Shown here piece by piece: positions 21,282 through 56,390 of a stretch of 64,000 nucleotides of DNA. Origin of the DNA: Shigella phage phi25-307; the sequence record MG589383. One strand, 5' to 3'. The notes under the pieces are model-generated. The model saw nothing but the letters and a program-made list of their open reading frames with translations, was not told the DNA's origin and searched no databases. The translations under genes were made by a program, and so were the position numbers. Positions within the stretch are counted from its first letter, which is position 1. Each line of letters opens with the position of its first letter.

Positions 21282-21436
21282 AAGTACCTCTTAGCTCAAT
21301 TCATAGGTCTATTATATCATAATATTTAGAGACCTATCTTAAAGCACGAGATACTACCAAAGATACGTAACTTTCATAAAATTGTCGACTTAAAATTCAC
21401 CAAACTTTTATTCGGTTATAGTAATTCGAGATAGTT

Positions 21437-21664
21437 TCATTCTAGTTCCTTTGCTGCTTCAAGAGCAGCATCCAGCGAATCAAATTGGTCAACGAAATCA
21501 ATATTCAACGCATCGTCAACCGTAGCATATAACCACCATTGTTTGAATTCGTATTCTAGAATAAATCCAGGCCCTTCAATCTGAGGAAGACCTAGGCTAT
21601 TTGTACCAACTTCGTAACCAGCTAGACGCAGGTCATTAATCAAAGTTTCTGTTAATACGCTCAT
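21437..21664 (-). CDS. hypothetical protein (75 aa)
   Basis: ORF. Confidence 0.45.
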   Translation of the reverse strand: MSVLTETLINDLRLAGYEVGTNSLGLPQIEGPGFILEYEFKQWWLYATVDDALNIDFVDQFDSLDAALEAAKELE

Positions 21665-21993
21665 TTTACCGCCTTAACAATTTTCAGGTCAACGAATTTT
21701 TTCTTACGTTGATTTTTCATACGACGGATAGTCTTTTCAGAGATTTCATGTTTCTGATAAGCTTTAGATTCAACACCAAATGCAGCAACGTCAAATTCAG
21801 AAAGAATATATTGTACTAGAATTTCACGAATAGAATTACGTCCAATTTTCTGGTCGTGTTTTTGCATGATTTCATAAAGACGGAATTCCCACGCGTCAAG
21901 AACTTGAGGAGTAACAATATTGCCGGATTCAAGAAGAGCAACAACTTTATCGAAAGCGAAAGAATTAACTACATTTTTGATTTTAGTAGACAT
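21661..21993 (-). CDS. hypothetical protein (110 aa)
   Basis: internal ATG at 21993 with RBS GAGGAAAATAAT. Confidence 0.5.
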   Translation of the reverse strand: MSTKIKNVVNSFAFDKVVALLESGNIVTPQVLDAWEFRLYEIMQKHDQKIGRNSIREILVQYILSEFDVAAFGVESKAYQKHEISEKTIRRMKNQRKKKFVDLKIVKAVK

Positions 21994-22011
21994 ATTATTT
22001 TCCTCGGTTGT

Positions 22012-22056
22012 TTTATTATCCAATGAGAGCATTATACTCTGCTCTCAAGAGTTTGT
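22012..22056. repeat. 45 bp intergenic element with inverted repeat GAGAGC/GCTCTC; identical copy at 52286..52330
   Basis: exact sequence tttattatccaatgagagcattatactctgctctcaagagtttgt seen at both loci. Confidence 0.8.
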
Positions 22057-22059
22057 GCA

Positions 22060-22299
22060 TTATTTCGTGATAAGATAATGTAAATAGTTTGCTTGACGAA
22101 CACTGATATCAACACCCATATCAAAGATACCTTTATAGAACGGGTATTTGTTTTCAGTAGAATCTAGACTAAAAGCCTTTCCACCACAACTAACGGTAAT
22201 AGCATCAGTTAAAGTGTCATATACAAACTTAATAGTTGAACCATTCACTACGACTTCAAGACGTTTTTTCGATGTAGTAATGTCTAATTCTTGTTCCAT
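22060..22299 (-). CDS. hypothetical protein (79 aa)
   Basis: ORF. Confidence 0.45.
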   Translation of the reverse strand: MEQELDITTSKKRLEVVVNGSTIKFVYDTLTDAITVSCGGKAFSLDSTENKYPFYKGIFDMGVDISVRQANYLHYLITK

Positions 22300-30338: not shown

Positions 30339-30368
30339 ATTATACTCCAACCATCCTTGGTTGTAAAC
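30339..30368 (-). promoter_or_regulatory. early promoter (GTTTAC-18-TATAAT)
   Basis: plus attata 30339-30344 and gtaaac 30363-30368; spacer contains ccatccttgg. Confidence 0.5.
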
Positions 30369-33430: not shown

Positions 33431-34411
33431 TTATTTCAGTAAAGTTACTTCAGAGATTTCCTCCCAACCATCTTTATCAGTTGAAATAAAATCTGCTACG
33501 TAAAGAGCCGTACGTAATGATACATTGCGAAGACGAGATACGTTAGCCTTCATCCAGGACAATGCTTTATACGTTTCTGCATCCGTCAGACCACGTTTCT
33601 GCATCATGTCAGTAGATAATATTACATCTTCAACTCGAACCATAATCTCTTCATTAGAGTGTACTCCAAGGTCGAGATACACTGAACGAGATACTAAAGC
33701 TTGAAGGTGTGGGGCAAGTTTCGAACCGCGTTCTAACTCTTTATCGATATCAACGTTAGTAATGAAAACGATAGTACCTTCAAACTCAAATTCTTTATCA
33801 ATACCCTTATCATCGAGATAAGATGACGCAGTGCTCCAACAAACTTTGCGTTTATCTCCGGTATCTAATGCTGCTTTAAGAAGGTTCAAGATGTCCATAT
33901 CTGAGAATACGTCAACGTCGTCGATTAAGAGAACGCTGTCTGCATCACGGTTGAGCCAAAGTTGTTCGTAAAGGCCAATACCAGAGATTTTACCATTAAT
34001 GCTTTTGTATTTGATGAAACCGTTATCATTAGCATTATTAAGTGCTTTATCCAGAGAATACGTCTTACCAATACCAGCTGCACCTGAAATAATGAGTGAA
34101 CGAATTTTACCATCGATAATGCCATTCGTCATCATGTTCATTACTTTAAAGCGTTTGTTGATACGAGTTTTCATATCTTCAGTGCTTTCAACAACTGCAA
34201 CTGGTGACGTCTCAACTCTTTCCATTACGATGTCTGATTTGAAGACCCATACTCCACGTTCAGAACCATCAATCATAACGAAAATTTTACCATCACCTAA
34301 GTGGGAACATTCAGGATTAAGCTTTGCCGGGAACCAGGTCTTTGTGGCAACATAAGAACCAGAGATTTCGTTATTACGATAGATACCTTTTTTGATTTGA
34401 ACGTTGAACAT
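33431..34411 (-). CDS. P-loop NTPase (326 aa)
   Basis: Walker A GAAGIGKTYS, Walker B LLIDDVD; ATG at 34411 with RBS GGAGAA. Confidence 0.6.
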   Translation of the reverse strand: MFNVQIKKGIYRNNEISGSYVATKTWFPAKLNPECSHLGDGKIFVMIDGSERGVWVFKSDIVMERVETSPVAVVESTEDMKTRINKRFKVMNMMTNGIIDGKIRSLIISGAAGIGKTYSLDKALNNANDNGFIKYKSINGKISGIGLYEQLWLNRDADSVLLIDDVDVFSDMDILNLLKAALDTGDKRKVCWSTASSYLDDKGIDKEFEFEGTIVFITNVDIDKELERGSKLAPHLQALVSRSVYLDLGVHSNEEIMVRVEDVILSTDMMQKRGLTDAETYKALSWMKANVSRLRNVSLRTALYVADFISTDKDGWEEISEVTLLK

Positions 34412-41029: not shown

Positions 41030-41488
41030 CTAGATTTTAATCACTGCTTTAGAAGCTTTTCCTGGTAGTCGTTTACTGTTAATAATAGCCATTCTGCATT
41101 GAAGAGTCTTCATTTTGAATGCTGGACTTTCGCGACAAACTGTAAGTCCTAACCAAAGATTTCCATCAGTTATTTCTAAACGGCCTGGACGATATTCGAC
41201 ACCTTCGACAAAATCTTCATCAACATCCGGACGTGCCGGCATTGATAAAAATTCTGCAACTTCTTTAACATGATTTTTTACTTTACGAAATAATTCAAAA
41301 ACGTAGTTCTCATCTATTTCTCTCTGTATAGCACGATCTAAGAGATGTTGAGAATACTTGATATGAAAGCCTGGTAGTCCAAGAGACTTTGCAGCATCTT
41401 TTATACCGGCATTTATTTTGCGGAACTCCGTTTCAAAGATTCGACGGAGTTTATTACGGCGGATAAAAACGTCAGAATTGATAGTCAT
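41030..41488 (-). CDS. regB: RegB endoribonuclease
   Basis: 152 aa; MTIN..VFIRRNKLRR.FE.EFR.IN ... CRMAIINS.RLPGKASKAVIK matches T4 RegB. Confidence 0.9.
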   Translation of the reverse strand: MTINSDVFIRRNKLRRIFETEFRKINAGIKDAAKSLGLPGFHIKYSQHLLDRAIQREIDENYVFELFRKVKNHVKEVAEFLSMPARPDVDEDFVEGVEYRPGRLEITDGNLWLGLTVCRESPAFKMKTLQCRMAIINSKRLPGKASKAVIKI

Positions 41489-41517
41489 TTTTGATTTCTC
41501 CTCTAGTTGACAGTTCT

Positions 41518-41546
41518 ATAGTAACACATCTAGAGGAGAAGTAAAC
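41518..41546 (-). promoter_or_regulatory. early promoter (GTTTAC-17-TACTAT) for regB
   Basis: cagttctatagtaaca ... gtaaac. Confidence 0.5.
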
Positions 41547-41550
41547 TACT

Positions 41551-41766
41551 TTATTGATAAAATGGAGTTAAAGCCCAAGATTCTTTAGATACCATATCGG
41601 CGAAATGCCTCATCTCTTCGATTTGGCGACGACGCTGGTCAGCATAGTCTTCTTCGCCTTCTTCCTTACAATCTTCAAGGTCTTCTTCAAGATACTTTAA
41701 GTATTCACTACAAATTTTGTTGACCTTTTCTTGAAAGTCCAATAACCCGGTAATAGTAGAAGCCAT
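41551..41766 (-). CDS. hypothetical acidic protein (71 aa)
   Basis: ORF. Confidence 0.45.
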   Translation of the reverse strand: MASTITGLLDFQEKVNKICSEYLKYLEEDLEDCKEEGEEDYADQRRRQIEEMRHFADMVSKESWALTPFYQ

Positions 41767-43632: not shown

Positions 43633-43962
43633 TTATACTCTAGGCTTTTGAGCTTGTTTGGTATTGGATTCCCATGCGGCTTTGGTAATTTTGTTAGCGG
43701 CATAACCAAAGGCACTAGATAGAACACCTTTAGAGTTGAATACATCCAATCCAATAAGTACACCTGCTGTGTTAAATTTAGGAGCAAAGTACGCATTAGT
43801 TTTAGAAAGAGCTTTTTTCAATTCAGGGTCTTGAACCAAGCCATCAAAAACGCCTTTACCATTTACTTTATATGTTACTTTGGGATTTTTAGCTTCTTCG
43901 ATAGCAGCTTTCTGTTCCGCAGATAATGTAACTTCAGTGATAAACTCTTGATATGTTTTCAT
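43633..43962 (-). CDS. internal-protein-like capsid-targeted protein (CTS MKTYQEFITE)
   Basis: N-terminal MKTYQEFITE capsid targeting sequence; ATG at 43962. Confidence 0.6.
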   Translation of the reverse strand: MKTYQEFITEVTLSAEQKAAIEEAKNPKVTYKVNGKGVFDGLVQDPELKKALSKTNAYFAPKFNTAGVLIGLDVFNSKGVLSSAFGYAANKITKAAWESNTKQAQKPRV

Positions 43963-44075
43963 TTTGTTCTCTCTAGGTTTAGACCATTCCATGGCCCATG
44001 AATTGTCCATTTTCCGTATTTACCACTCCAAGTAATTATGAATATACTATCACAATTCTAGGAGAAAGTAAACTG

Positions 44076-44378
44076 TTATTTACCTTTAATTACTTTAGCT
44101 GCTTCGATAGCCGCTTGCTGAAGGTCGTCCATAGACATACCGAATTTAGAAGCAAAGTTATCAATTTTCTTTTCGACCGCATTCAAAGGCTTGGCCTGTT
44201 TACCTTCATTAGCGCCTGGAAGAGCGAGAATACGCTCTTTGTCAATATAAAGGCTTACAAGTTTCTTACGGTCTTTATCGGACAAATCATGAAATGAATG
44301 GGCCTTTTTATTTATAGCGGCTTCTAATTTACCTGCACTCACTCGAGCTTCAGTAATAAATTCTTGATATGTTTTCAT
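44076..44378 (-). CDS. ipII: internal protein, IPII-like (CTS MKTYQEFITE)
   Basis: CTS leader; 100 aa, size as T4 IPII. Confidence 0.55.
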   Translation of the reverse strand: MKTYQEFITEARVSAGKLEAAINKKAHSFHDLSDKDRKKLVSLYIDKERILALPGANEGKQAKPLNAVEKKIDNFASKFGMSMDDLQQAAIEAAKVIKGK

Positions 44379-44419
44379 ATGTTTCCTTTAAATGTAAATA
44401 GGCCTAAGTACAGGCCTTA

Positions 44420-44998
44420 TTAATTACCACGGGCTGCATTAGCAACGGCATAAGCGTACTGAACATTAGCGTCTTTAAACGTACCTTTAGAGGTATCTAT
44501 TTCTGCCTTAAAGCCGCCTTTAGCCATAACATCAGCAAATTCTTTACGGAAAGCCATTGCGTCAAGACCTTTCCATGATGATTTGTGCTTGGCGAATTCA
44601 AGACCAGCGTAGTTGACAGCCTTAGCTAATTTATTATCAATAACCCATTTACCGGCTTTAGGCACAAACTTCGGTCCTTTTTGTTTAGAGAACAGTTTTA
44701 AATTCCAGCGACGAAGATCACTGTCGGCTTTAACAAAAGCTGCATCTAAGTTACTAGCAACAACATCTTCAATATGAGCAAATTTAAGTCCGTCAACTTC
44801 AATATTTAGGTCGGTACGCCAGCGAAGTCCTTCCCAAGCGAAAGCTTTAAAGTCGGAAGCTTTTGTAGCTAAGTATCGTTCAAGTGGAGCAGTTTTAGGG
44901 TCAAAGCCGTTTCCACCACGATAAGTCCACTCGTCCTTATTAATGCCTTGAGCTTTTCCTGCAAAGGCCTCGGCGATAAATTCTTTATATGTTTTCAT
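44420..44998 (-). CDS. ipIII: internal protein, IPIII-like (CTS MKTYKEFIAE)
   Basis: CTS leader; 192 aa, size as T4 IPIII. Confidence 0.55.
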   Translation of the reverse strand: MKTYKEFIAEAFAGKAQGINKDEWTYRGGNGFDPKTAPLERYLATKASDFKAFAWEGLRWRTDLNIEVDGLKFAHIEDVVASNLDAAFVKADSDLRRWNLKLFSKQKGPKFVPKAGKWVIDNKLAKAVNYAGLEFAKHKSSWKGLDAMAFRKEFADVMAKGGFKAEIDTSKGTFKDANVQYAYAVANAARGN

Positions 44999-45024
44999 TT
45001 TTGTTCCTATTGTTTTAATTCATG

Positions 45025-45339
45025 TTATTCTTTAGGGAAGTTTTTAGAGTATGCGTCATAAAGTTTATTGCCGATGCGACGGAAGACTCTAGCTGCAAAA
45101 CGGTTTTCAGGGTTTTTAATCATGATTTGCATCATGTAAGTTCCTGCATCCGAAAGAGCTTCTTCATAGTACCCATTAATTTCTTTAAGAGTCCTACGTT
45201 TACCACCAGGACCATCAACAGTAATTTTCCATTTACCTGTAGAAGTGCGGCTCGGTGGCTCAACTTGTTCAATCCAAATATAACCACCTTCAACGCGTTG
45301 ATTGGCGGATTCTGCAATAAATTCTTTATACGTTTTCAT
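45025..45339 (-). CDS. internal-protein-like capsid-targeted protein (CTS MKTYKEFIAE)
   Basis: CTS leader; 104 aa; own early promoter. Confidence 0.6.
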   Translation of the reverse strand: MKTYKEFIAESANQRVEGGYIWIEQVEPPSRTSTGKWKITVDGPGGKRRTLKEINGYYEEALSDAGTYMMQIMIKNPENRFAARVFRRIGNKLYDAYSKNFPKE

Positions 45340-45369
45340 TTTTGTTTCCTTGTTTGTTTTGATAGAGTA

Positions 45370-45399
45370 ATTATACCATATTAATACTTAAGCGTAAAC
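45370..45399 (-). promoter_or_regulatory. early promoter (GTTTAC-18-TATAAT)
   Basis: gtaattatacca ... gtaaac. Confidence 0.5.
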
Positions 45400-45402
45400 T
45401 GT

Positions 45403-45663
45403 TTAAGCTTTACCGCCAGAAATAATTCCGAAGTTGTTAAAATCATATCCAATATCGTCAACATCTACTTTAGGGCTTGCTACAACATAAGCAATTTCAC
45501 CACGTTTTGCATAGGTGTTGATTTCTTTACCATCGCCGCCTAGGAAAGAATACCCATTACGTTTTAATGAGCCAAAGTCTTCCGCATCACCAATGAAAGC
45601 TTTAACTTTAAATTTATGACCTTCGGCATCTGCTTCAGCGATAAATTCTTGATACATTTTCAT
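45403..45663 (-). CDS. internal-protein-like capsid-targeted protein (CTS MKMYQEFIAE)
   Basis: CTS leader; 86 aa. Confidence 0.6.
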   Translation of the reverse strand: MKMYQEFIAEADAEGHKFKVKAFIGDAEDFGSLKRNGYSFLGGDGKEINTYAKRGEIAYVVASPKVDVDDIGYDFNNFGIISGGKA

Positions 45664-45669
45664 TTTTCC

Positions 45670-46083
45670 TTAGTAAATTGATTTACCATAGTATTTGTAC
45701 CAAGTAGGACGCTGAGCAATTTTTTCATCTAAGCGTGCTTGACTTATCGCAATGGACGCTTCGGACGGGACATAATTATTACGAAATTCGGCAGGGATGT
45801 CGGAAATATCCTGGACAGTCGTGTCCTTGATTTTGAAACCACGTTTCAAGCATTCAGCGATTAACTCGATTTGACGTAAACGTAAAAATTCGAGTTTGTC
45901 GTAAAAGAATGTTACATGACCTGTGCCTAAGATAAATGTTGGAGAGATTTTAAAATCCTTTACACGTTTACCGTTTTGAACATGTTTACGGACTGCACCA
46001 AATACACGTGGTAATTCACGATACTCGGCCATAAGATGTTGGTCGGTCAGTTCAGAAACAAGTGTTAAATTGATACGGGTCAT
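45670..46083 (-). CDS. denV: endonuclease V (pyrimidine-dimer DNA glycosylase)
   Basis: [34 protein letters not shown]... matches T4 DenV; ATG at 46083. Confidence 0.9.
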
Positions 46084-46110
46084 AATTTCCTCCAAGTAGT
46101 TGATGAATGT

Positions 46111-46140
46111 ATAGTATCAAAACCCTTGGAGGAAGTAAAC
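46111..46140 (-). promoter_or_regulatory. early promoter (GTTTAC-18-TACTAT) for denV
   Basis: gaatgtatagtatc ... gtaaac. Confidence 0.5.
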
Positions 46141-46141
46141 A

Positions 46142-46423
46142 CTATTTTTCTGAAGCGCCTGAAATATATTTTTCAAGACGTTGTTTCATCAACGAGCCGT
46201 TCTTAGCGATTTCTTCTGGTTTATCGCACATACGCAACAAGGCTTCAAGCTTAACGATATCACTGGTGCGCTCAAATTTGCGAGTATCTATCTTACTAGC
46301 AAGTTCAGAAATACGTGCTAATAGACTTTCAGCTTCAACCAAAGCTGCACCTAGCTTAGTTGCAAATGTGTCAGTAGCTTCGTTAAGAATAGATTCTGAT
46401 AAAAATTCACTATATGTTTTCAT
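46142..46423 (-). CDS. internal-protein-like capsid-targeted protein ([13 protein letters not shown])
   Basis: CTS leader at internal ATG 46423. Confidence 0.55.
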
Positions 46424-46908
46424 ATATACGCTTTCCAAGTTCCTGTTTTAAATGTCGAGATTACGCGTTTCGCGCGATTAGGTGTCTGACGATACCATTT
46501 AGATTGGGCTAGATTTACTGCCGCTTCGTCCCAACGTTTCTGTTGAAGCATACGAAGAGAATTAGTAAAACCAGCGACGCCTGCTACACCCATTTGGAAG
46601 ACCATATTGACCAATGCACATCGACGAACTGCATCTAAAGAATCATATACCGGTTTAAGTTTAGCATTACCCAAGATTCCGCGAACAGCTTTATCAACGT
46701 CTTCATTAAATAACTTTTCAGCCTCATCAAGGGTAATTGTACCGTTGCATTTACGTCCGATCATTCTGTCAAGTTCAGCTTTAGCTACGGCTAAAGACGG
46801 GTTCTTTGTTACTAAATGACCTATGCCAATCGTCCAAAAGCCTTCAGTGTCTTTGTATAAAGTCAGTCTAAGACCTTCGTCATTACGAAGCATTTCAAAT
46901 ATATTCAT
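46420..46908 (-). CDS. e: lysozyme (endolysin, T4 e)
   Basis: [27 protein letters not shown]... matches T4 lysozyme with catalytic E11/D20/T26 context. Confidence 0.95.
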
Positions 46909-51669: not shown

Positions 51670-52263
51670 TTATTTCAAAGAGTTAATATATTCTTGTACA
51701 TCAGCAGAAGTGGTTTCGACACCAGCTGGAGTGCCATTGAACGTTTCAACACGAGTCAGAGTGTCTTCGATATCAACCTTAGTCAGTGCAGCGATTTCAA
51801 TTACATCATCAGCCGTAGAGATACCAAGGGCATTGGCTGCTCGAGTTTCACGAATGTATTCGAGTTTGATTGCCAGATTCTGACGAGCATCGTCAAGTTC
51901 AACCACCTTACGAGCAATTTCAATTCGCATAGCGGCATACCCGTCAGCTTTTGTATTAAGTTGTTCGGCAGTTCGACGATACAGAAGACCAAGCTTGGCA
52001 TGCATGGTAACATCTTGTCCTTCAGCCAGGAGCTTACGAATTTCACGTTCCTTAGAAGCGGCTTGCTTGTTCTTTTCATTAACAAGTTCGCGAATACGTT
52101 TTTCTTCATTAATAGATTTAACAGAAGCCGTTTTTAGTTCTTTGATTTGGGTAATCAACTTATCTGCAGCTGCGTTATACTGTTCTTCGACAGTCAGATT
52201 TTTAGCCATAGCAGTACTCAGTTTAGTGCGGATGAATTCAACAAGTTTCTTCAGTGTGTTCAT
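51670..52263 (-). CDS. coiled-coil protein (about 197 aa)
   Basis: ATG at 52263 with RBS GAAAGGTAATAAT. Confidence 0.5.
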
Positions 52264-52285
52264 ATTATTACCTTTCAATTGGTGG

Positions 52286-52330
52286 TTTATTATCCAATGA
52301 GAGCATTATACTCTGCTCTCAAGAGTTTGT
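52286..52330. repeat. second copy of the 45 bp palindromic intergenic element (see 22012..22056)
   Basis: identical 45 nt. Confidence 0.8.
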
Positions 52331-52333
52331 AAA

Positions 52334-52561
52334 TTATTTTTTAATCAAATTGACATAAAACTCGGCGTCTTCCGGGTGCATGCCTTCACAGTATTCTTCA
52401 ACCATGAACTTCTTAACAGCTTCATAAGGACCACTCAGATTAAGCTCAGTTGTCCAGAACTTGGAATCTTGGGCTGAATCGATACGAACTTCAGGGTGAC
52501 GGTTGCGAATAACTTCTTCGGTGTATTCATAATCAACGACATCAATACTAACTTTAGCCAT
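52334..52561 (-). CDS. hypothetical acidic protein (75 aa)
   Basis: ORF. Confidence 0.45.
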   Translation of the reverse strand: MAKVSIDVVDYEYTEEVIRNRHPEVRIDSAQDSKFWTTELNLSGPYEAVKKFMVEEYCEGMHPEDAEFYVNLIKK

Positions 52562-54371: not shown

Positions 54372-54448
<77 letters not shown>

Positions 54449-54454
54449 AATATA

Positions 54455-54528
54455 TGACCCAGACCAGATTCGAACTGGTAACCTTTCCCTTATGAGGGGA
54501 CTGCTGCTAACCGTTGAGCTACAGGGCC
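54455..54528 (-). tRNA. tRNA with CAU anticodon (Ile-lysidine type or Met)
   Basis: manual fold: T-arm ACCAG-TTCGAAT-CTGGT, anticodon loop CTCATAA; acceptor has one U-U mismatch and the D-arm is atypical. Confidence 0.6.
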
Positions 54529-56051: not shown

Positions 56052-56360
56052 CTATTTTATTCCGCGTGATGCAATCGTATTCTGCCGTTTAACGCCAGTT
56101 TGTTTAAAGTTATGATTGTCGAGTTGATCGGTACGAGCAACTCCAAACGATGATTTAATCTTAGCTTTAGATCCTTTAGTTATAGAAATAAACATCTCGG
56201 GAGCCCCTTTCTTAAAGTCCGAAGCAATTACTTCAACACCGTTCTTAGCAAGTGACCTCAGAATTGCTTCCGCATACTCATCATCAAGACCCGCTTGAGT
56301 ATGAATAACGAATGTCTTTGGTGCAGCTGCTTCACAGATAAATTCTTTGAAAGTTTTCAT
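56052..56360 (-). CDS. ipI: internal protein, IPI-like by position (CTS MKTFKEFICE)
   Basis: CTS leader; 102 aa; adjacent to the 57B homolog as ipI is in T4. Confidence 0.55.
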   Translation of the reverse strand: MKTFKEFICEAAAPKTFVIHTQAGLDDEYAEAILRSLAKNGVEVIASDFKKGAPEMFISITKGSKAKIKSSFGVARTDQLDNHNFKQTGVKRQNTIASRGIK

Positions 56361-56390
56361 TTTATTTTCCTAATTAATTTTGATAGGACT

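Follow-up and report, generated by a model that had tools for sequence, protein, structure and literature searches.

An exact 45-nt intergenic repeat in Shigella phage phi25-307: a probable cassette of early promoter, hairpin and RegB site

The DNA analysed here, hereafter the window, is a 64,000-nucleotide stretch of the genome of Shigella phage phi25-307 (MG589383), a T4-like phage of the genus Mosigvirus (RB69/JS09 group). The 45-mer TTTATTATCCAATGAGAGCATTATACTCTGCTCTCAAGAGTTTGT occurs in it exactly at nucleotides 22012–22056 and 52286–52330 (plus strand), two identical copies 30 kb apart as a first-pass annotation had reported. Every gene flanking either copy is on the minus strand. Copy 1 separates the stop codon of a homolog of RB69ORF075c (22060–22299) from the start of the 55.2 ortholog (ATG, 21991–21993), and copy 2 separates the stop codon of frd.3 (52334–52561) from the start of the e.6 ortholog (ATG, 52261–52263); the placement described in that annotation, from one minus-strand stop to the next minus-strand start, thus holds at both loci. 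Weaker similarity between the copies reaches ~68 nt (22009–22076 versus 52283–52350, 88%). No further match to the 45-mer was found in the window at up to three mismatches, nor any in 100 dinucleotide-preserving shuffles. The features of the two copies, together with regB, are as follows.

22060–22062, minus strand: TAA stop codon of the RB69ORF075c homolog, abutting the -35 hexamer of copy 1
22054–22059, minus strand: copy 1 predicted -35, TGCACA (4/6 matches; phage AV113 has TTTACA here)
22040–22047, minus strand: copy 1 hairpin 5' arm, TGAGAGCA, within the promoter spacer
22031–22036, minus strand: copy 1 predicted -10, TATAAT, comprising loop nucleotides 4–8 and the first nucleotide of the 3' arm
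22024–22031, minus strand: copy 1 hairpin 3' arm, TGCTCTCA, equivalent to -7 to +1, its last A (22024) being the predicted start
22011–22021, minus strand: copy 1 RegB/S1-type site, GGAUAAUAAAA, 11 nt, identical to two T4 GGAU sites reported to be cut
21661–22005, minus strand: copy 1 downstream unit, SD GAGG (22002–22005) and the 55.2 ortholog (ATG 21991–21993; DUF7570)
52334–52336, minus strand: TAA stop codon of frd.3 (52334–52561, PF05798), abutting the -35 of copy 2
52328–52333, minus strand: copy 2 predicted -35, TTTACA
52314–52321, minus strand: copy 2 hairpin 5' arm, TGAGAGCA
52305–52310, minus strand: copy 2 predicted -10, TATAAT
52298–52305, minus strand: copy 2 hairpin 3' arm, TGCTCTCA, with the predicted start A at 52298
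52285–52295, minus strand: copy 2 RegB/S1-like site, GGAUAAUAAAC (9/11; C replaces A at position 11)
51670–52276, minus strand: copy 2 downstream unit, SD GAAAGG (52271–52276) and the e.6 ortholog (ATG 52261–52263)
41030–41488, minus strand: regB (PF10715, E = 1.2e-68), the endoribonuclease proposed to cut the GGAU sites in trans

Read on the minus strand, both copies share a single layout: TAA, the -35 hexamer, 17 nt, TATAAT, seven nucleotides ending in A, UU, and GGAUAAUAAA(A/C). The A/T-rich tract AAATAA lies upstream, with the TAA directly adjoining the -35 in both cases, and an SD and ATG come 9–15 nt past GGAUAAUAAA(A/C). From the predicted start to the ATG the distance is 31 nt in copy 1 (55.2) and 35 nt in copy 2 (e.6).

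A genome-wide search for further copies had been proposed, and in related phages the repeat is not limited to two sites. The nearest genome, SQ17, shows 100% identity across 301 nt around copy 1 and carries a third copy upstream of ndd, outside the span of the window, with a 33-nt identical core. JS09 has three copies (upstream of ndd, e.6 and 55.2) and a diverged fourth between pseT.1 and ORF231c, giving 3–4 copies per genome in these relatives. In all, 159 phage records carry the element, each at 2–3 places, which rules out an assembly artefact and disposes of the earlier concern over sequencing error or misassembly.

A consensus scan of the minus strand called a sigma70-type promoter at both copies, TTTACA-17-TATAAT at copy 2 (11/12 matches) and TGCACA-17-TATAAT at copy 1 (10/12), with no TGn extended -10 at either. 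The -35 of copy 1 (TGCACA) is weak, and the HMM score of its RB69 ortholog is 8.9. Nolan et al. (2006) listed 58 predicted RB69 early promoters (PMC1524935, Additional file 3), and a check against the RB69 sequence identified Pe:42515 as the ortholog of copy 1 and Pe:72069, with a published score of 25.3 against the 8.9 of Pe:42515, as that of copy 2. The published RB69 promoter model ends at the same base as the start A predicted here. In the portions of that paper that were searched neither "palindrom" nor "RegB" occurs, and the two orthologs appear as HMM promoter matches only, with no mention of a hairpin, of covariation within it or of an adjoining RegB-type site. Both copies are accordingly best described as predicted T4-type early promoters, which would be active from a start at the A ending the palindrome.

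Two other promoter classes were considered. A MotA-dependent middle promoter, sought as (a/t)(a/t)TGCTT(t/c)a 11–13 nt upstream of the -10, was rejected since no TGCTT is present at -30, and a gp55-dependent late promoter was rejected since the element contains no TATAAATA.

The first-pass annotation had held that the repeat fits none of the promoter classes of this phage. That view is incorrect, because about half of the early promoters of this phage group share the architecture of the cassette, here a minus-strand sigma70-type early promoter with orthologs among the published RB69 predictions. Other minus-strand intergenic promoters in the window consist of (G)TTTACA, a spacing of 16–17 nt and TATAAT or TATAGT, with an inverted repeat around the -10 whose arms differ from one promoter to another (TGATAGGACTA/TAGTCCTATCA, AGGTCTAT/ATAGACCT, ACGATAGGAAGA/TCTTCCTATCGT). 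In the complete genome of JS09 the -10 lies in a hairpin loop at 18 of 38 predicted early-strand promoters. There the complementarity between spacer and downstream region is promoter-specific, with a mean MFE of -9.6 kcal/mol as against -6.1 ± 0.4 kcal/mol when spacers were joined to the downstream regions of other promoters (200 permutations, the best of which reached only -7.25).

The palindrome itself is TGAGAGCA/TGCTCTCA, 8+8 nt around an 8-nt loop holding the -10; the inverted repeat with its TATAAT had been recognised previously, though with arms of 6 bp, which is too short. The 5' arm falls in the promoter spacer and the 3' arm spans -7 to +1. As RNA the 45-mer folds with -13.8 kcal/mol (z = -4.0). 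Rfam 15 gave no match at the element at the gathering score.

IMG/VR was searched with a pattern of the family. A first version, AAACTCT-N8-GAGTATAA with 15 specified bases, was too loose, returning 120 loci of which ~11–12 were true family members. The pattern adopted specified 21 bases and fixed neither the inner six positions of the 5' arm nor any of the 3' arm beyond its first two bases; it gave 30 loci. The scaffold TACAAACTCT-arm-GAGTATAA-arm precedes a number of genes, among them 55.2, e.6 and ndd, with arm pairs that include TGAGAGCA/TGCTCTCA, TGGGAGCA/TGCTCCCA, TGGGACCA/TGGTCCTA and TGGGGTCA/TGACCCCA. Across 18 distinct variants, which are related sequences so that the covariation counts are not independent events, stem pairing is complete (144/144 cells, 100%); none of 500 shuffles reached 100%, and slid controls gave 35–54%. 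Three stem pairs are altered on both sides among the 18 variants, and every one-sided change yields a sense-strand G.U, never an A.C. The 55.2 copy of RB69 adds two compensatory changes, U-A to C-G and C-G to A-U. The remaining JS09 hairpin promoters point in the same direction (4 G.U : 1 A.C : 1 other), which is not significant alone (p = 0.375). The original judgement that the repeat is a functional element rather than a product of chance holds.

These data bear on the possibility that the palindrome acts as DNA, whether as the operator of a dimeric regulator, as a cruciform, or as the target of a recombination enzyme mobilising promoter-ORF cassettes. Such a role would suit a perfect palindrome centred on the -10 and the homology breakpoints described below, and a protein recognising the stem-loop was speculated upon by Arbiol et al. 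The arms vary yet stay complementary, the opposite of what is expected of a protein recognition site, and because they covary rather than stay conserved, and one-sided changes are G.U only, the protein binding site suggested in the first-pass annotation is not favoured. A double-stranded DNA feature would moreover be strand-symmetric, 8-bp stems with 8-nt loops extrude poorly, and the breakpoints share no single position, some being at one edge or the other and some within the -35/AT-rich part. We consider action as DNA very improbable. G.T is the least destabilising DNA mismatch, which leaves some room for a sense-strand DNA hairpin. On the whole the substitution pattern argues for selection of the stem as a sense-strand RNA hairpin and not as a protein-binding DNA palindrome.

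Since the 5' arm lies upstream of the predicted start, locally initiated RNA would lack the hairpin and only read-through RNA could fold it. This expectation follows from standard promoter geometry and is consistent with the published RB69 promoter model. A comparable arrangement exists at T4 e, soc, 49 and I-TevI, whose hairpins contain a late promoter and mask the SD when they fold in early read-through RNA. As would be the case here, RNA started inside those hairpins is without the 5' arm and read-through RNA folds; the T4 promoters are late ones and the SD is sequestered, whereas the promoter here is early and the SD is outside the hairpin.

Promoter-early stem-loop (PeSL) cassettes are known from T4-type phages (Arbiol et al. 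2010, PMC2839356; Comeau et al. 2014, PMC4122927), with the PST/T4 consensus TTTACW-N17-TAYWAT. The present element shares their defining traits: it occupies the intergenic space between early ORFs of one strand, and the A/T-rich tract ahead of its -35 holds the stop codon of the upstream ORF; it has sigma70-like -35 and -10 hexamers spaced by 17 nt, a stem-loop overlapping the -10, and an SD and ATG at its 3' end; it is repeated in the genome; and close relatives show indels or replacements at it. A subclass with the stem-loop overlapping the -10 is part of the published definition (PMC2839356). These descriptions (PMC2839356, PMC4122927) cover RB49/phi1, PST/T4 and nt-1/KVP40, and RB69-like phages were not found in them. 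They differ from the present case in two respects. The stems of RB49 consist of G/C tracts and terminate transcription, whereas the stem here is without a U-tract; and the PeSL descriptions do not include a RegB-type site alongside the cassette.

The first of these differences concerns the published PeSL view, according to which the hairpin would mainly attenuate or terminate read-through from upstream and so insulate the 55.2 and e.6 units. In RB49 a PeSL stem-loop cut lacZ expression about as much as rrnB T1 (PMC2839356), and the orthologous 55.3|55.2 spacer of T4 has a UUCG hairpin and U5 tract right before the same GGAUAAUAAAA. In the present element the U run after the stem is just two long (UGCUCUCAUUGG), no terminator was called there by the scan, and the published RB69 listing gives no predicted terminator at the coordinates of the orthologs; an intrinsic terminator was rejected for these reasons. 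The 8-bp stem is also only moderately G+C-rich, unlike the G4/C4 stems of RB49. The attenuator role known from RB49 may not transfer to a hairpin with no U-tract, and as its main function here it appears possible but doubtful; a part as 3' stabiliser of read-through RNA is the reading we tentatively prefer.

The target of RegB with S1 is an 11-nt single-stranded RNA, GGAGRAYARAA (Durand et al. 2006, PMC1702504). In T4 two of 30 intergenic GGAU motifs are cut, 5' of ORF 55.2 and of motB.2, and one additional cut GGAU site is known in RB69 (PMC1702504). Both of the cut T4 GGAU sites read GGAUAAUAAAA, which is identical to the 11-mer in copy 1. Piesiniene et al. reportedly mapped, in 2004, a GGAU RegB site in RB69. 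Cleavage at GGAU is much poorer than at GGAG except where the A-rich part is strict. Copy 1 is at the orthologous locus, the 55.2 leader, with the 11-mer two nucleotides past the hairpin and matching 10/11 of the consensus. The site of copy 2 matches 9/11, its C at position 11 replacing one of the three most conserved A positions, and is by sequence a weaker candidate RegB site than that of copy 1.

A GGA(G/U) is found 1–2 nt past the stem in 24/24 family members, with 7–10 of 11 consensus matches and an invariant GGA triplet. In the window GGAKRAYARAA occurs eight times versus 0.9 expected, 7/8 on the early (mainly minus) strand, and regB itself is within the window (41030–41488). Several of the consensus sites resemble an SD in sequence and position, e.g. 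GGAGAATAAAA at 34411 and 55982. In its MFE fold the 45-mer has an additional pairing, of the CU ahead of the stem with the GG of the predicted RegB site. In centroid folds of longer context the GGA is unpaired, and the site is predicted to be single-stranded, in the intergenic stretch that separates the hairpin from the SD; family members differ in the distance from stem to GGA.

The resemblance to the T4 GGAU sites lies in the same 11-mer, the same 55.2 leader locus, a position directly after a hairpin, and a phage-encoded regB. The T4 55.2 site is situated behind the UUCG hairpin and U5 tract, a terminator-like structure without a promoter, whereas the hairpin here holds one; the T4 motB.2 site is an SD behind a promoter-in-hairpin. 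Copy 2 further deviates at position 11, and the sites described here are predictions from sequence. RegB cleavage at the cassette in this phage is probable, and the processing site that was among the functions first proposed is a relevant one, with a RegB-type cleavage motif at the 3' end of the element.

The A/U-rich tail (AUAAUAAA) might instead be a site for the RegA repressor or an S1-binding translational enhancer. RB69 RegA SELEX picked AAUAAUAAUAAnA (PMC3014915), and the RegB/S1 site is itself largely an S1-binding sequence. RegA operators overlap the initiation region, whereas the motif is 17–23 nt upstream of the AUG and apart from the real SD; the invariance of GGA in 24/24 members and the reported cutting by RegB of the identical 11-mer at the orthologous locus of T4 also speak against this alternative, which we regard as improbable.

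The role in recombination that was also raised at the outset proved pertinent. Ungapped identity profiles anchored on the cassette show that genomes cease to be homologous to one another at its edges. The suggestion that gene order at these junctions might differ among relatives is borne out. Among the IMG/VR contigs, the upstream flank and cassette are kept and the downstream gene is replaced in L034 versus L141 and L055, and in L134 versus L143; the upstream gene is replaced, and the cassette and downstream gene are kept, in L003 versus L137 and L021 versus L134. Homology to the window ends exactly at 22056 in AV113, AV109, JM10 and EP32a. AV113 is without the whole ORF075c module, the stop of its 55.3 being joined to TTTACA-AACTCTTGAGAGC. 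The breakpoints occur at both edges and in the -35/AT-rich part, with no single fixed position.

Arm sequence tracks lineage and not locus: Mosigvirus copies are all of the TGAGAGCA type except the diverged 55.2 copy of RB69. In JS98/VR-type genomes the 55.2 copy and the ndd copy differ from each other. The lineage-wise arms point to exchange between copies as a simple origin of the 45-nt identity. Taken further, the identity could reflect a recent ectopic gene conversion of two ordinary promoters, with the hairpin and GGAU having no function of their own. Lineage-specific arms common to all Mosigvirus copies would agree with this, as would the requirement of T4-type recombination for <50 bp of homology (PMC2839356). 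Conversion explains the identity within a genome, but not perfect pairing across genera through compensatory changes, and it leaves unexplained the invariant GGA 1–2 nt past every stem. As a full account of the element we give it little credence.

The interpretation that we favour, with a probability of roughly 75%, is that both copies are composite cassettes of the PeSL kind that regulate early genes, each consisting of a promoter in a hairpin and a probable RegB site. Host sigma70 RNA polymerase would start at the A ending the palindrome, from a strong early promoter, copy 1 driving 55.2 and copy 2 driving e.6. RNA initiated locally would lack the hairpin and RNA from upstream promoters would fold it, the hairpin in the latter marking the 3' end of the upstream cistron. 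RegB would cut GGAUAAUAAA(A/C) 1–2 nt past the hairpin, corresponding to +4 to +14 of the local transcript. In T4, T4 PNK phosphorylates the 5'-OH produced by RegB and so opens the RNA to RNase E/G (PMC3014915). By this known pathway the 5'-OH of cut local RNA would be phosphorylated and the RNA degraded, while read-through RNA, once cut, would yield an upstream fragment with the hairpin as its 3' cap. The shared cassette would also serve as a homology patch for recombination, which would account for both the module swaps at its edges and the homogeneity of the copies, including the 45-nt identity.

A more speculative and rather unlikely extension is that the hairpin and RegB site form one coupled module separating two RNA populations, which is at the same time a portable recombination linker. 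Local transcripts, with a naked RegB site at +4, would go rapidly to 5'-end-dependent decay; read-through RNA would be cut just 3' of a protective hairpin, uncoupling the stability of the upstream and downstream cistrons; and gene conversion would keep the module uniform throughout the genome. If true, promoter-in-hairpin plus RNase site would be a general design rule for early units of RB69-, JS98- and VR-type phages, which has not yet been described as such.

The repeat is a genuine, functional element of a type already known, in which a predicted early promoter and a hairpin are combined with a probable RegB site. An eye-catching exact repeat is in this instance ordinary phage regulatory grammar and not a new element to pursue. 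Its variants provide clean covariation evidence that the stem-loop of such a cassette is selected as sense-strand RNA, a test that the PeSL papers (PMC2839356, PMC4122927) do not report. Two separate literatures, on PeSL cassettes and on RegB/S1 sites, are joined by the presence of a RegB-type site 1–2 nt past the hairpin in every member. The module swaps exactly at cassette edges are documented in Mosigvirus, Dhakavirus and Gaprivervirus genomes, and matter for the annotation and engineering of therapeutic T4-like phages.

Several other features of the window were recorded. Minus-strand promoters with -35 positions at 30367 and 31360, ~1 kb apart, have an identical spacer and -10 (ACCAAGGATGGTTGGAG-TATAAT) and are another promoter-cassette subfamily; JS09 has the same ACCAAGGATGGTTGGAG-type pair and a third similar copy at 162342. 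At 209–274 and 41489–41554 (minus strand), the latter directly upstream of regB, are promoter-in-hairpin cassettes with the SD inside the 3' arm (CTCCAGTAGTTG/CAACTACTGGAG and TCTCCTCTAG/CTAGAGGAGA); read-through RNA would hide this SD and locally started RNA would not. Adjacent tRNA genes at 54375–54448 and 54455–54528 (minus strand) are the sole Rfam matches in the window.

The frd.3 homolog (PF05798, 52334–52561) is next to e.6 in this phage, in RB69 and in JS09; the T4 gene name presumably reflects a position near frd. In IMG/VR contig L137 another gene precedes the same cassette and e.6. A 155-nt non-coding gap (21282–21436) separates 55.1 from gene 55; JS09 carries RB69ORF072c (270 bp) there and most relatives are ~183 bp longer, a difference suggestive of a deletion in both this phage and 348Ecol098PP. 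Finally, at least six small ORFs in a row at 43930–46434 (minus strand) all open with ATGAAAACATATCAAGAGTTTATC (MKTYQEFI...), with one more at 56328–56371; we take MKTYQEFI to be the leader motif of T-even internal proteins, and the region looks like a hyperplastic internal-protein locus.
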